From a virus: DNA of 64,000 nt. Below, one piece after another: positions 47,794-63,801 of this stretch; position 1 is the first letter of the stretch, and each line of letters opens with the position of its first letter. Location: positions 1 through 64,000 of IMG/VR virus record IMGVR_UViG_3300023202_000163; one strand, written 5' to 3'. A program made the translations under genes and the position numbers. The notes below the pieces were generated by a model that was not told the origin of the DNA, ran no database searches, and saw only the letters and a list, made by a program, of their open reading frames with translations.

Positions 47794-48981
47794 ATGGCCG
47801 ACCCAACAGGTAGTTTCGGAGGAACATTTGGTCAGGGACCTGGAAGGGATCCTGGAGACCGCCTCTTTCAAGCAGTAGATACTCTGGCACGGTTGGCTAC
47901 TATTCAAATCGCTCAAGATCGTCAGCTCATTTATGTAGAGGAAAACAATACCCTCTATGTAATGGATAAACAAGATAACAATGCAGATATAGGACTTGGT
48001 GAAGTAGCTTCCCCCAACGGAGGTGTTTGGAAAATTGTAAATGGTGGTGTTGTTGGACCCCCTGGGCCTGCCGGACCTGCTGGAGGGCCTAAAGGAGAAA
48101 CTGGAGCTACGGGGGGAACTGGGCCTGTCGGTGGCGTAGGTTCTCAAGGCCTACAGGGTGAAAAAGGGGAGACTGGAGAAGTAGGTAACACAGGGTCCAC
48201 GGGCCTAGTTGGCCCTATGGGGAACCCAGGTCCAGCAGGTATTGCGGGAAATGCAGGGGAAACCGGAAATACGGGTGGAACTGGAGCTACAGGTGTAACG
48301 GGCAATACAGGTAATACAGGACCAGCCGGGCAAGCCGGAACCCCTGGAGGACCTCCCGGACCTGCCGGAGAAACCGGCCCCACTGGGCCTGCGGGGGGCC
48401 CTGACGGATCTACCGGGGAAACTGGAGCTACCGGACCTCAAGGAGAAACTGGAGCTACAGGAAACACAGGGGCGGGAGAAACCGGAGCTACTGGTGTTAC
48501 AGGACCTCAAGGAGAAACTGGAGCTACAGGAAACACAGGGGCGGGAGAAACCGGAGCTACTGGTGTTACAGGACCTCAAGGAGAAACTGGAGCTACCGGA
48601 GCTGTTGGGGCTCAAGGAGAGACTGGAGCTACCGGAGCTGTTGGGGCTCAAGGAGAGACTGGAGCTACAGGAAACACAGGGGCTCAAGGAGAAACCGGAG
48701 CTACTGGTGTTACAGGACCTCAAGGAGAGACCGGAGCTACTGGGGCTACCGGAGCTGTTGGGGCTCAAGGAGAGACTGGAGCTACTGGTGTTACAGGACC
48801 TCAAGGAGAGACTGGAGCTACCGGAGCTATAGGGCCTGATTCCTATACACCAGGAAATGAGGCTGACTGGGAGTTACCTGCACCTTCCACTATATCGGAA
48901 GCTATAGATAGGTTGGCAGAGGCTTTTGTAAATGGAGAAACTGGACCTATAGGTCCCTTTGACGGCGGCCTCCCTAATTAG
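47794..48981 (+). CDS. Collagen-like fibre protein 1
   Basis: Long Gly-X-Y tract ([12 protein letters not shown]) after the shared N-terminal domain. Confidence 0.9.
48433..48596 (+). repeat. 69-bp perfect tandem repeat (~2.4 copies) inside collagen 1
   Basis: Unit encodes [23 protein letters not shown], with copies starting at 48433, 48502 and 48571. Confidence 0.9.
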
Positions 48982-49096
48982 TAGAGTATAAACAGAACCA
49001 ATGCTTATGTTTATTATAGTGAATGCGAGCCCTGCCGCTTGATAGCAGAGGCGCATTAGAATATAACGCTCAATGCGAGACTAGGGGCCGAAGCTA

Positions 49097-60948: not shown

Positions 60949-60966
60949 CTACACTAAAGACTTTGC

Positions 60967-63801
60967 ATGAAAAACATTTGTTTTCTATGCGAAAGTACAG
61001 AATTTTACTCAGCAGTTTCAACTAGTGGTGAGAATACGCCTTATTTAGTTTGTGGTGGCTGTGGGGTATGGGCACAATTTCCTGAAAAATCCTTTAAAAG
61101 AAGTTCAGTCTTACTAGAGGATTCAGAACTATCAGAAAATTATAAATTAATAAACCAAGACTTGGCTGAGAGGCTTGCAGCAAAGCATAAACCCGAAAGC
61201 GTTTTAGACATAGGCCCCAAATCCCTTCATTTCACAGAGTGTTTTAAGGGTTTAGGGATAAATAAAGTTATAAGTATAGATGATTGCGAGACAAAAAAAT
61301 ATAAAATAGAAAAAAACTCTAACAAAATTGTAGGGGATTTTCTAAGCTATAATTTTAATGGACAAAAATTTGATCTTATAACTTTAGTTCATTCTATCGA
61401 GAGATTTAAAAATCCTGTTTCTTTATTTAAAAAAATAAAAAGTATTTTGACAGATAAAGGAGTTGTTTACGTTAGAACTCCATTATCTGAATCGGTAGGT
61501 TTGCCTACTCACCTAAAAAAAGAAAATTATAAGAAAAATTCAATTATTTTTTCAAAAAAATCCTTTAAAGCTTTATGTAAAAAAGAAGGTTTTGTAATTT
61601 TTGATGAATGGGAACAACCTGGTCTTGGCCAAATTGATTGGCAATTGAAAATTGCTGATGATATTAGAGTTTCTTTTGCTGTAATTTCACACAACGAAGA
61701 AAAAATTATAGGTAGAATGCTCGACAGTATCTCCCCCATAGCTTGGGAGGTAGTAGTGTATTTAAATAATTGCAGCGACAACACACCACAAGTTATAAAA
61801 GATTTTAGTAAAAGAACAGGAATTAAAATAAAAATTATAGAAGGGTTTTGGGACAATAACTTCGCCCGCGCTAAAAATGAGGCTATAATGGCCTGTGAGG
61901 GTACACACGTAGCTTGGATGGATTGTGATGATGTGTTATCCCCAGATGCCCCAGAAAAAATTATTAAGCTTTTACAAGAAAAACCCGACCATCCTCAGGA
62001 TTGGAGACTTATATACGGCGGAGACACATTTTTCCATCTAAGGTTATGGAAGAATGAAGCCAGAGACGACGGTAAAGGAAATGTCTATAAACCACATTTT
62101 CACGATAAATGCCATGAATATGTACAATTAGGTGCTTATGGTAGTATGAAGATTAAATGTGACACTATTACGCTAAAACATATTCCCCAGCCAAAAGATG
62201 CGTCTGGCAGAAACATAGAAATACTAACTGAAGCTGAAAAGGTAGGACCTACGCCTTGTCCATATTGCCCAGGAGAATTTGATGGCAAAAGCAGAACTCT
62301 TTTTTATCTTGGTAACGGATTAAGAGAAGCTGGTCGGTATGAAGAAGCATTAAAGAGGTACGATACATATCTAATAAACAATATGGGGTGGCACGACGAG
62401 AGATTCTGGGCTTGGATGTATAAGGGCCAGTGTCATCAAGGGCTAAACCAAAAAGAAGAAGCTTTAAAAGCATATTGCCAAGCCATAGCTACCAATTCTC
62501 ATTGGGCTGAGCCTTACCTCGCTATAGCAAGAATGAAGTATCAAGAGGGTGCAGATACAAAAGAAGTAGCAAAATTCCAGCAAGCTATATCTTGGGCAGT
62601 ACACGCAGCAACAAATCCAATACCAAACACTTTAATGTTTTTGAATATGGGGGCTTATAAAGACCAACCATGGAGGTTAATAAGCTGGTGTTGGGAACAT
62701 CTAGGAGATTTCGAGAAAGCTCTTAATTATGGTATAATAGCAAAAGAAAAAATAGGCGGGGAAGATCAATCTTGGGATGATCGTTTAAATAGGTTGCGTA
62801 CCAGTTTAAATAAAAGTTCGCCCTCTGTCTCCAATGCTTCAAATAAAATAGTTCAAATATGCAGACCCGGCGCATTAGGTGATATTATCATGTCCACGGC
62901 TGCGTGCAAAGGTTTAAAAGAACAGGGTTATTACGTTCGTTATGTATGCCATCCCAGTTCTATAGAAGCAATATCCAATAATCCTTTTGTTGACGAAGTA
63001 ATTACGGTTTCTGATAATAATTATCCTAAAATTGTAGAAGCTACAAAGAATCTTGAAAAACCAGAAAAGTTTATACTTATGCAGTATCCTATGAATGAAG
63101 GCTATCCGGATAAACCTATGCAAAAACATCTATCTCATTATTTTTGCGAGCAAGCCGGGGTACCGCAGACTACTGATTTAAGTTTAGGTCTTACTCAGGA
63201 ACATTTAAATTACGGGGCTGAGAATGGTTTCGGTAAAGTAGTTGTGCACACTACCGCAGGTTGGTCCCCGTTAAAAAATTGGCCTATAAATTGGTACGAA
63301 AAATTAGCCAAAATGATAAAAGAAGAACTAGGCTTGGATGTAATACAGATAGGAGCAGAGAGGGATGTCCCTGTAGGGGGGATTACTAAGCTGGTAACTC
63401 CTTCAATAAAACATGCTGCGGCGGTGCAGAAATTCTGTACTCTTTTTATTGGCGGGGATTCAGTATTTAATCATACCTCTCGCGCAATGAATAAGAGATC
63501 CATTATTATATGGGGGTCTACTCATCCTCTTGGTTCTGGCTACGACCAGAATATAAATTTAGTAAATGGAGAAAAATGGACAAGAGACATGGGAAACGGG
63601 GGACCCACTAAAGAGTGTCAACCGTGCTATAAGGAGTTTAATCACATGTCTGTACACCCCAAACCTCCCTGTCCTAACTTAGTCGCGCATGATATCTCTA
63701 CTCTTCCCAGAGAAGACTACCCAGAAAAGACATTAAATAGCTGTATGTCAAAAAATACTGTAAATCTTGTATGGAAATACACTAAAGAACTTTTATCTTA
63801 G
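60967..63801 (+). CDS. Multidomain glycosylation enzyme: SAM methyltransferase-like + GT2 + TPR + GT9
   Basis: CFLC..CGGC, VLDIG, FDLITLVHSIE; ISHNEE, NFARAKN, WMDCDD; TPR helices; RPGALGDII, FIGGDS..NH, IWGST, CQPC. Confidence 0.88.
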   Translation: MKNICFLCESTEFYSAVSTSGENTPYLVCGGCGVWAQFPEKSFKRSSVLLEDSELSENYKLINQDLAERLAAKHKPESVLDIGPKSLHFTECFKGLGINKVISIDDCETKKYKIEKNSNKIVGDFLSYNFNGQKFDLITLVHSIERFKNPVSLFKKIKSILTDKGVVYVRTPLSESVGLPTHLKKENYKKNSIIFSKKSFKALCKKEGFVIFDEWEQPGLGQIDWQLKIADDIRVSFAVISHNEEKIIGRMLDSISPIAWEVVVYLNNCSDNTPQVIKDFSKRTGIKIKIIEGFWDNNFARAKNEAIMACEGTHVAWMDCDDVLSPDAPEKIIKLLQEKPDHPQDWRLIYGGDTFFHLRLWKNEARDDGKGNVYKPHFHDKCHEYVQLGAYGSMKIKCDTITLKHIPQPKDASGRNIEILTEAEKVGPTPCPYCPGEFDGKSRTLFYLGNGLREAGRYEEALKRYDTYLINNMGWHDERFWAWMYKGQCHQGLNQKEEALKAYCQAIATNSHWAEPYLAIARMKYQEGADTKEVAKFQQAISWAVHAATNPIPNTLMFLNMGAYKDQPWRLISWCWEHLGDFEKALNYGIIAKEKIGGEDQSWDDRLNRLRTSLNKSSPSVSNASNKIVQICRPGALGDIIMSTAACKGLKEQGYYVRYVCHPSSIEAISNNPFVDEVITVSDNNYPKIVEATKNLEKPEKFILMQYPMNEGYPDKPMQKHLSHYFCEQAGVPQTTDLSLGLTQEHLNYGAENGFGKVVVHTTAGWSPLKNWPINWYEKLAKMIKEELGLDVIQIGAERDVPVGGITKLVTPSIKHAAAVQKFCTLFIGGDSVFNHTSRAMNKRSIIIWGSTHPLGSGYDQNINLVNGEKWTRDMGNGGPTKECQPCYKEFNHMSVHPKPPCPNLVAHDISTLPREDYPEKTLNSCMSKNTVNLVWKYTKELLS

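Follow-up and report, generated by a model that had tools for sequence, protein, structure and literature searches.

Does a bacteriophage glycosylate its own collagen-like fibres? The question is raised by IMG/VR record IMGVR_UViG_3300023202_000163, a viral contig of 78,116 bp (CheckV completeness 35%), of which we analysed the first 64 kb (64,000 nucleotides), hereafter the window. Past the major head protein gene the window carries five genes for collagen-like fibres rich in threonine, and behind them an open reading frame (ORF) of 944 amino acids (aa) in which a methyltransferase, a glycosyltransferase of family 2 (GT2), tetratricopeptide repeats (TPR) and a domain resembling glycosyltransferase family 9 (GT9) are fused. 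The best reading, and in our judgment a probable one, is that the fused enzyme glycosylates the phage's own collagen fibres, because the collagens are Thr-rich, the GT2-TPR part can be placed among protein-modifying enzymes, and the pairing of enzyme and collagen gene recurs.

The four-domain enzyme

The enzyme is encoded on the + strand at 60967-63801. The initial annotation of this DNA, made from the letters alone, had described a methyltransferase-GT2-TPR-GT9 fusion, and this description holds: Methyltransf_23 (residues 63-211), Glycos_transf_2 (236-366), TPR (444-523) and Glyco_transf_9 (737-856) are all found above the Pfam cut-offs. The four parts are as follows.

60967-61653, + strand: part 1 (aa 1-229), a Cys4 zinc-ribbon-like start and a class I methyltransferase; Methyltransf_23 E-value 9.7e-14; conserved CxxC...CxxC and D81/G83/D105/D136.
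61666-62196, + strand: part 2 (aa 234-410), the GT2 domain, of glycosyltransferase A (GT-A) type, with an invariant WMDxDD motif; Glycos_transf_2 E-value 2.9e-20, 73.3 bits.
62197-62814, + strand: part 3 (aa 411-616), TPR/helical repeats; matches to TPR_2, TPR_1 and TPR_16; helices at 412-615 in the AlphaFold model.
62845-63801, + strand: part 4 (aa 627-944), a divergent GT9-like domain of glycosyltransferase B (GT-B) type with four conserved Cys near the C-terminus; Glyco_transf_9 30.2 bits, cut-off 22.

The AlphaFold model of the enzyme has a predicted local distance difference test (pLDDT) score of 86 and a predicted template modelling (pTM) score of 0.46, and the packing of the domains is thus uncertain. 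There is no membrane segment; since the maximum 19-residue hydropathy is 1.09, the enzyme is predicted to be soluble. About 30 full-length homologues are found in metagenomes, in which the domain order is kept down to 26% identity. The catalytic motifs are invariant among 22 homologues down to 28% identity; the GT2 motif reads WMDCDD here, with W317, D319, D321 and D322 invariant. Cultured phages have no full-length relative of the enzyme, only GT9-like pieces, which occur in Caulobacter phages, and a search for short stand-alone GT2-TPR relatives gave two proteins only.

To which glycosyltransferases is the GT2-TPR part related? Against the PDB, the profile built from the enzyme's own family reaches SunS (E-value 8.8e-33), GmaR (2e-30) and ThuS (2.5e-19), while the other GT2s listed in the same search (chondroitin synthase, TagF and others) reach about 1e-9 to 1e-10. 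The top Foldseek matches are SunS and ThuS over about 400 columns, spanning the GT2 domain and the helical part. Because of these profile E-values and the Foldseek ranking, the GT2-TPR part groups, by sequence and model, with protein/peptide glycosyltransferases and not with polysaccharide GT2s, in agreement with the protein-modifying type that had been proposed for it. The TPR region matches the TPRs of OGT and SPY in both profile and fold searches. Further Foldseek matches of the enzyme are the GT9 structures 3tov, WaaF, WaaC and TibC and the TPR-plus-GT-B enzymes SPY and OGT. The methyltransferase domain has a weak fold match to the sugar C3-methyltransferase KijD1. In this phage motif I of the domain is degenerate, and His146, near-invariant elsewhere, is Arg; the domain may be losing binding of S-adenosylmethionine (SAM) here.

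Collagen-like fibres and their linkage to the enzyme

The fibre genes and the genes between them, together with the preceding head protein gene, are listed below.

44675-45811: major head protein; PHROG 2522, E-value 1.1e-63.
47794-48981, + strand: fibre F1, 395 aa; small N-terminal beta domain, 86 Gly-X-Y triplets (46 with Thr at Y), short C-terminal tail; Pfam Collagen E-value 1.4e-31.
49097-50794, + strand: fibre F2, 565 aa; PFDTEE peptide, beta domain, collagen, internal BclA_C/C1q-like domain (aa 237-378), second collagen run, C-terminal domain; Pfam Collagen E-value 5.7e-24.
50794-54942, + strand: fibre F3, 1382 aa; 218 triplets, BclA_C-like domain as in F2, long beta-rich C-terminal region; Pfam Collagen E-value 3.3e-78.
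54949-55854, + strand: LamG/concanavalin-like lectin-domain protein, 6 nucleotides (nt) after F3; no Pfam match; Atlas feature score 0.97, Laminin_G_3 in 22 of the 30 nearest clusters.
55855-56259, + strand: conserved ORF of 134 aa directly upstream of F4; 70-74% identity and the same position in three related jumbo phage contigs; no family match.
56259-58487, + strand: fibre F4, 742 aa; PFDTEE peptide, beta domain, 73 collagen triplets, beta-rich shaft, tail collar and gp10_C tip; Pfam Collagen E-value 1.6e-21.
58530-60380, + strand: fibre F5, 616 aa; collagen from residue 5 (69 triplets) without an N-terminal domain, then shaft and tip; Pfam Collagen E-value 5e-21.
60406-60948, + strand: conserved ORF of 180 aa between F5 and the enzyme; 39-60% identity and the same position in the related records L003-L005; no family match.
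Contig 67387-70824 (L002:7388-10825), beyond the window: sixth fibre F6, 1145 aa; 221 triplets, 189 with Thr at Y; PFDTEE start; about 2.4 kb upstream of a putative sheath ORF.

Thr-rich collagen genes thus do stand right after the capsid region, where the initial annotation had placed them; its count of five is correct for the window, while the contig has six. Counted in runs of at least four Gly-X-Y triplets, the five fibres of the window hold 519 triplets, with Thr at Y in 296 (57%), and the predicted dominance of Thr at this position is evident; for all six fibres Thr occupies Y in 485 of 740 triplets (66%). The X position is mostly Ala, Pro or Glu. The lengths of the five genes in the window add up to 11.1 kb. 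If triple-helical, the predicted stalks would measure some 60 to 190 nm (F3 about 187 nm). Tandem DNA repeats of 36/69 nt lie inside the F1 gene (48421-48837).

The fibres are built from recurring modules. A conserved short peptide (P/A-F-D-T-E/D) opens F2, F3, F4 and F6 and is followed in F2, F3 and F4 by a Gly-rich linker. Common to F1-F4 is a beta-rich domain of about 55 residues immediately before the first triplet. Its predicted fold (F1, 47794-48120; pLDDT 60 overall, 65-80 in the core) has weak matches (E-values 0.08-0.9) to N-proximal parts of tailspikes and to the trimerisation domain of collagen XV/XVIII, and the unit of beta domain plus collagen is also found inside long tail fibre proteins of PHROG families. 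As a lead only, the modelled domain may serve to start trimer formation and not as an anchor of the fibre.

The BclA/C1q-like domain that had been noted earlier is predicted in F2 and F3 only, and in both it is internal, not C-terminal. In F2 its Pfam score (26.6 bits, E-value 5.9e-6) is under the cut-off of 38, with an Atlas feature score of 0.94 and a structural TM of about 0.9; the F3 copy is 31% identical to that of F2 (E-value 1e-11). At the distal end, a recognised tail-fibre tip is restricted to F4 (Pfam Collar E-value 6.9e-23, Gp10_C 1.7e-8; PHROG 9116 tail protein, 8.2e-45), and the PHROG tail-fibre matches of the other fibres mostly span the collagen repeats. The shaft and tip of F5 have no tblastn match in the phage collection, and the F3 tip is likewise without a useful cultured relative. 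By sequence, the six are paralogous genes for predicted trimeric fibres between the head and putative tail-sheath genes, and they suggest a family of modular fibres with exchanged distal parts, as in multi-receptor phages, with a receptor-binding look. The LamG/concanavalin-like protein (54949-55854) is a possible distal adhesin of the set.

From F2 through the enzyme the genes form a tightly packed run, with intergenic gaps of -1 to 42 nt. The only strong terminator on the + strand is at 45898-45931, just after the head protein gene, and none follows later in the region. Because the gaps are tight and no strong terminator separates fibres and enzyme, their co-expression is likely on sequence grounds.

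Is the pairing peculiar to this phage? We clustered homologous loci, drawn from viral and prokaryotic assemblies, at 50% identity, which gave 51 clusters. A collagen ORF of at least 15 triplets lies within 10 kb in 18 of these and within 1 kb in 13; the corresponding control count is 2 of 26 endolysin loci, and no collagen ORF lies within 5 kb in any of 15 GT2-TPR loci of an outlying clade. (A scan of tail-sheath loci returned two close relatives only and is unusable as a control.) In the GT2-TPR tree, the collagen-linked loci fall in two well-supported clades, where they make up 19 of 37 and 10 of 22 rows. Homologues with 25-35% identity adjoin Thr-rich collagen genes in several settings: further jumbo phages, a smaller phage unrelated to them, and chromosome contexts of Betaproteobacteria. 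In three phage records the fusion has no collagen gene within 10 kb, yet such genes are present elsewhere in the record. Relative order and strand of the two genes vary by lineage: on the same strand both an upstream and a downstream arrangement occur, and on opposite strands a downstream one. The co-occurrence check that had been suggested for this locus thus gives a positive answer: the pairing recurs in independent contexts, bacterial chromosomes included.

The bacterial loci come from metagenome-assembled genomes (MAGs; L090, L091, L092, L097, L103, L108); Casimicrobiaceae and Methylocucumis loci are examples of the bacterial pair. On contigs from Betaproteobacteria, up to 1.3 Mb in length, Thr-rich collagen-like genes immediately precede the four-domain fusion, and the neighbours are cellular (aquaporin, HAD hydrolase, AI-2E transporter, IS481). 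In the gammaproteobacterial L108, some 4.6 kb separate the enzyme from the collagen protein, in the neighbourhood of SufB; this collagen protein has CBM96 and a putative signal-peptide-like start. Judged by sequence, collagen gene and glycosyltransferase seem to form a free-standing module at the bacterial loci. An unrelated phage of about 64 kb, which has an SU10-type portal and an HK97-type capsid, encodes small collagen proteins (168-286 aa) together with a GT2-TPR enzyme (about 660 aa) between its portal and capsid genes (L052:8811-11983). This lineage, to which L044, L045, L058 and L061 also belong, gives a hint of glycosylated head fibres.

The sugar donor and the genomic setting

Which sugar might the GT9-like domain transfer? 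Its residues D639, K770 and D831-S-x-x-H align with the GD, K-x-WP and D-T-x-x-H motifs of WaaC, which contain what we take to be the catalytic Asp13, Lys192 and Asp261. The profile of the domain reaches WaaC, a characterised heptosyltransferase, only at an E-value of 0.006, and the curated heptosyltransferase models are not reached (TIGR02193 19.2 bits, cut-off 185.3; TIGR02195 18.4 bits, cut-off 134.6). TibC is missing from the profile matches at E-values up to 10, and this sequence comparison does not support a protein heptosyltransferase of the TibC type for the domain; in Foldseek TibC ranks 14th, after 3tov, WaaF and WaaC. Four cysteines (C884, C887, C902, C926) are invariant or nearly so among homologues; they are a possible, unproven counterpart of the iron site of TibC.

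Two further ORFs bear on the glycan.

5752-6144, + strand: HldE-domain-II-like nucleotidyltransferase; TIGR02199 E-value 1.3e-45, 154.8 bits, under the cut-off of 181.5; next-best family 58 bits.
443-991: small sulfotransferase-like ORF inside a tRNA cluster, 47 kb from the fibres and without link to them.

The initial annotation had named both as an HldE adenylyltransferase and a sulfotransferase and had thought of a heptosylated, methylated or sulfated glycan. Both ORFs exist, but the first stays below its curated cut-off and nothing ties the second to the fibres, so that sulfation finds no footing here. The HldE-II-like gene lies 55 kb from the enzyme, in the company of genes for a phosphoesterase, RtcB and a CCA-adding enzyme. 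Of five related records, three from close relatives conserve the gene, a fourth has a weak match and the fifth lacks it. GmhA was not found in any of the five related phage records. Together with the divergence of the GT9-like domain, these results weaken the case for heptose. A phage-encoded ADP-heptose pathway is not borne out, given the lack of GmhA and the absence of the HldE-II-like gene from one fusion-bearing record; that the HldE-II-like protein supplies an ADP-sugar is possible but unproven. The same gene may belong to an RNA-repair group rather than to sugar metabolism. This RNA-repair-like group (2432-11662) comprises a calcineurin-like phosphoesterase, RtcB ligase, the HldE-II-like nucleotidyltransferase and a 1059-aa protein of the CCA-adding/poly(A) polymerase family.

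What kind of virus is this? The head protein shares 33-36% identity with its counterparts in jumbo myoviruses of Vibrio, Pseudomonas, Burkholderia, Dickeya and Erwinia, a prohead protease is encoded close to its gene, and in the rest of the contig, outside the window, we read a 1038-aa ORF as a putative tail sheath. On these three grounds the contig is, by sequence, a fragment of an uncultured jumbo myovirus. A nucleotide search with the head region gave no match among cultured phages. The GH108 endolysin and the relatives of the phage suggest a Gram-negative host. The contig starts with a cluster of 11 tRNA genes at 281-2355 (Pro x2, Lys x2, Gln x2, Ser x4, Trp). Two large genes on the - strand (14173-17055 and 19003-21246) are interrupted by inteins with LAGLIDADG endonuclease domains. 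Among the head genes are a homing endonuclease of GIY-YIG type (40095-40742), an endonuclease of HNH/endonuclease VII type (46038-47138) and a 325-aa head-region protein (36110-37087) with a C-terminal domain of Fe/Mn superoxide dismutase (E-value 8.2e-16).

Readings of the locus and known systems

How would the enzyme work on the fibres? The domain content, family placement and gene linkage stand as described above; from them we infer which acceptor and sugars the enzyme would use, and in what order its domains would act. The soluble enzyme would act on the fibres in the cytoplasm, before or during assembly. The TPR domain would hold the fibre chain while the GT2 domain, of the SunS/GmaR/SgtA type, attached the first sugar to Thr hydroxyls of the collagen repeats. 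A second sugar, possibly heptose, would come from the GT9-like GT-B domain, and the methyltransferase domain might cap the glycan. The outcome would be hundreds of short O-glycans on the fibres, possibly stabilising a triple helix free of hydroxyproline and shielding or tuning the fibres. It is tempting to go further and see an assembly line that builds a methyl-capped, heptose-containing glycan on hundreds of Thr of six fibres, a module shared by jumbo phages and free-living Proteobacteria, where it would form a glycosylated collagen surface layer; in this full form we consider the idea a long shot. If it were true, protein heptosylation would be known outside autotransporters for the first time, as would a glycosylated collagen in a phage.

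Several points weigh against fibre glycosylation. The phage is uncultured, and the reading rests on sequence and predicted structure. Thr richness alone is no sign of glycosylation, since no residue occupies the Y position of bacterial collagens more often than Thr (31.6% over all bacteria, 48.3% in Gram-positives; PMC8968730); the composition found here is typical of the Thr-rich class. The homology comparison of the GT2 domain covered SunS, ThuS and GmaR, and the likeness to SgtA is one of architecture only. The GT9-like domain is, by sequence, too divergent to name its donor, and motif I of the methyltransferase is degenerate (VLDIGPKS, compared with LDIGSKYP or LDIGCGYP in relatives). As for the linkage, L003-L005, the three close relatives, share synteny with this phage and do not count as independent cases. 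In the clade of the enzyme itself, roughly every second locus has no collagen gene within 5 kb, many contigs being cut short. Collagen fibres are common in large phages and the control set is small, so that the linkage could partly reflect shared structural modules.

Might the enzyme have another target? It could modify other virion proteins, host envelope glycans such as the lipopolysaccharide (LPS) core, or a soluble glycan, and its proximity to the fibres would then come from a shared late structural region. The GT9 family is best known for LPS heptosyltransferases, a name that the Pfam and Joint Genome Institute (JGI) annotations carry; some fusion-bearing loci have no collagen gene within 10 kb; and glycosylated virion proteins other than collagens are documented in phages (Freeman et al. 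2023, as cited in PMC12619734). We nevertheless hold such a target to be rather unlikely, as the GT2 domain is far nearer to protein/peptide glycosyltransferases than to polysaccharide GT2s, the enzyme has TPRs and no membrane segment, and the fusions on bacterial chromosomes pair with collagen-like genes, not with LPS or capsule loci. The opposite extreme, at which the fibres are unmodified, Thr at Y stabilises the helix purely by hydration and the enzyme, as an auxiliary gene, has nothing to do with the virion, appears very improbable. A Thr-rich Y position is typical of unmodified bacterial collagens too (PMC8968730), but the collagen pairing recurs in unrelated contexts, the enzyme lies within the same tight gene run as the fibres, and its catalytic motifs are conserved.

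A different matter is where modified fibres would sit. The initial annotation envisaged an exosporium-like glycan nap, possibly heptosylated, methylated or sulfated, on virion hairs. In this version the collagens would form a hairy coat that covers the capsid or the length of the particle, and would not be receptor-binding tail fibres. The position on the particle, head or tail surface, is not readable from the sequence. The fibre genes begin 2 kb past the major head protein gene, F2 and F3 have the BclA_C/C1q-like domain, and in L052 the collagen genes and the GT2-TPR enzyme stand between portal and capsid genes; a collagen-like protein that binds the capsid is known in SPP1 gp12, which shows that fibres of this kind can sit on the head (PMC7602432), and close relatives conserve the HldE-II-like gene. 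The tail collar and gp10_C tip of F4 and the matches to tail-fibre PHROGs speak against a coat of virion hairs, as do the sixth fibre near the putative sheath gene and the N-terminal beta domain, which weakly matches N-proximal tailspike parts by fold. Heptose has as its sole support the divergent GT9-like domain and a sub-threshold HldE-II match 55 kb away, with no GmhA, and nothing connects the sulfotransferase (443-991) with the fibres. Taken as a whole, the decorated coat is in our view unlikely.

Glycosylation of the collagen fibres, in whichever position, remains the reading that we favour. In the literature available to our search we found no report of glycosylated collagen-like phage fibres, and glycosylation of phage particles is known from few cases. 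Particular to this locus are the four-domain fusion with its GT9-like domain, the six candidate substrates and the occurrence of the same module in chromosome contexts of Proteobacteria. If the fibres do carry hundreds of O-glycans, this would explain the stability of long triple helices that are free of hydroxyproline, and the sugar surface could influence adsorption, protease resistance and recognition. The spore-coat chemistry of SgtA and BclA3 would then extend to viruses and Gram-negative bacteria. A single-chain enzyme with a short repetitive substrate may also serve for making defined glycosylated collagen materials.

How does the system compare with known ones? SunS, ThuS and GmaR (PDB 7msn, 7msk, 22ao) are the best profile and fold matches of the GT2-plus-helical region and act on peptides or proteins. 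They are 15-18% identical in the fold alignments, however, and are without a fused GT-B or methyltransferase. The acceptor of SunS and ThuS is a bacteriocin Cys, not collagen, while the Listeria GmaR modifies Ser/Thr of flagellin. The GT9-like domain is modelled with a GT-B fold, as in WaaC, WaaF and TibC, and has the motifs GD, KxWP and D(S/T)xxH in common with these enzymes. TibC, a protein heptosyltransferase, is an instance of a GT9-like enzyme that acts on proteins. OGT and SPY resemble the phage enzyme in having TPRs that adjoin a GT-B domain.

In Clostridioides difficile, SgtA, a GT2 with four TPRs encoded beside bclA3, adds beta-O-linked N-acetylglucosamine (beta-O-GlcNAc) to Thr of collagen-repeat peptides of BclA3 (PMC7157674). 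Compared by published architecture, both enzymes have a soluble GT2 followed by TPRs, and both genes adjoin a Gly-X-Thr collagen-like gene. SgtA has 358 aa and two domains, whereas in the phage enzyme a methyltransferase precedes the GT2-TPR part and a GT9-like GT-B domain follows it; moreover, the gene is carried by a jumbo phage, and there are six candidate substrates.

Viruses offer three further parallels. In the chlorovirus PBCV-1, A064R builds and caps the glycan of the virion capsid with two glycosyltransferase domains and a methyltransferase (PMC9614988); like the phage enzyme, it is a single viral chain with two glycosyltransferases and a methyltransferase, there serving a virion-protein glycan. 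Its sequence is unrelated, it has no TPR, and its products are N-glycans on the capsid protein of a eukaryotic virus. The Mimivirus L230 hydroxylates Lys and glucosylates the hydroxylysine of collagen-like proteins (L71) (PMC9614988). It is likewise a viral enzyme that glycosylates the virus's own collagen-like proteins, but by the hydroxylysine chemistry of animals and with another enzyme family, while the candidate site in the phage is Thr. Mycobacteriophages, as PMC12619734 cites Freeman et al. (2023), use their own glycosyltransferases to modify the C-termini of capsid and tail-tube subunits. Although these sites are not collagen fibres and the architecture of the enzymes differs, there too glycosyltransferases encoded by a phage act on its own structural proteins.

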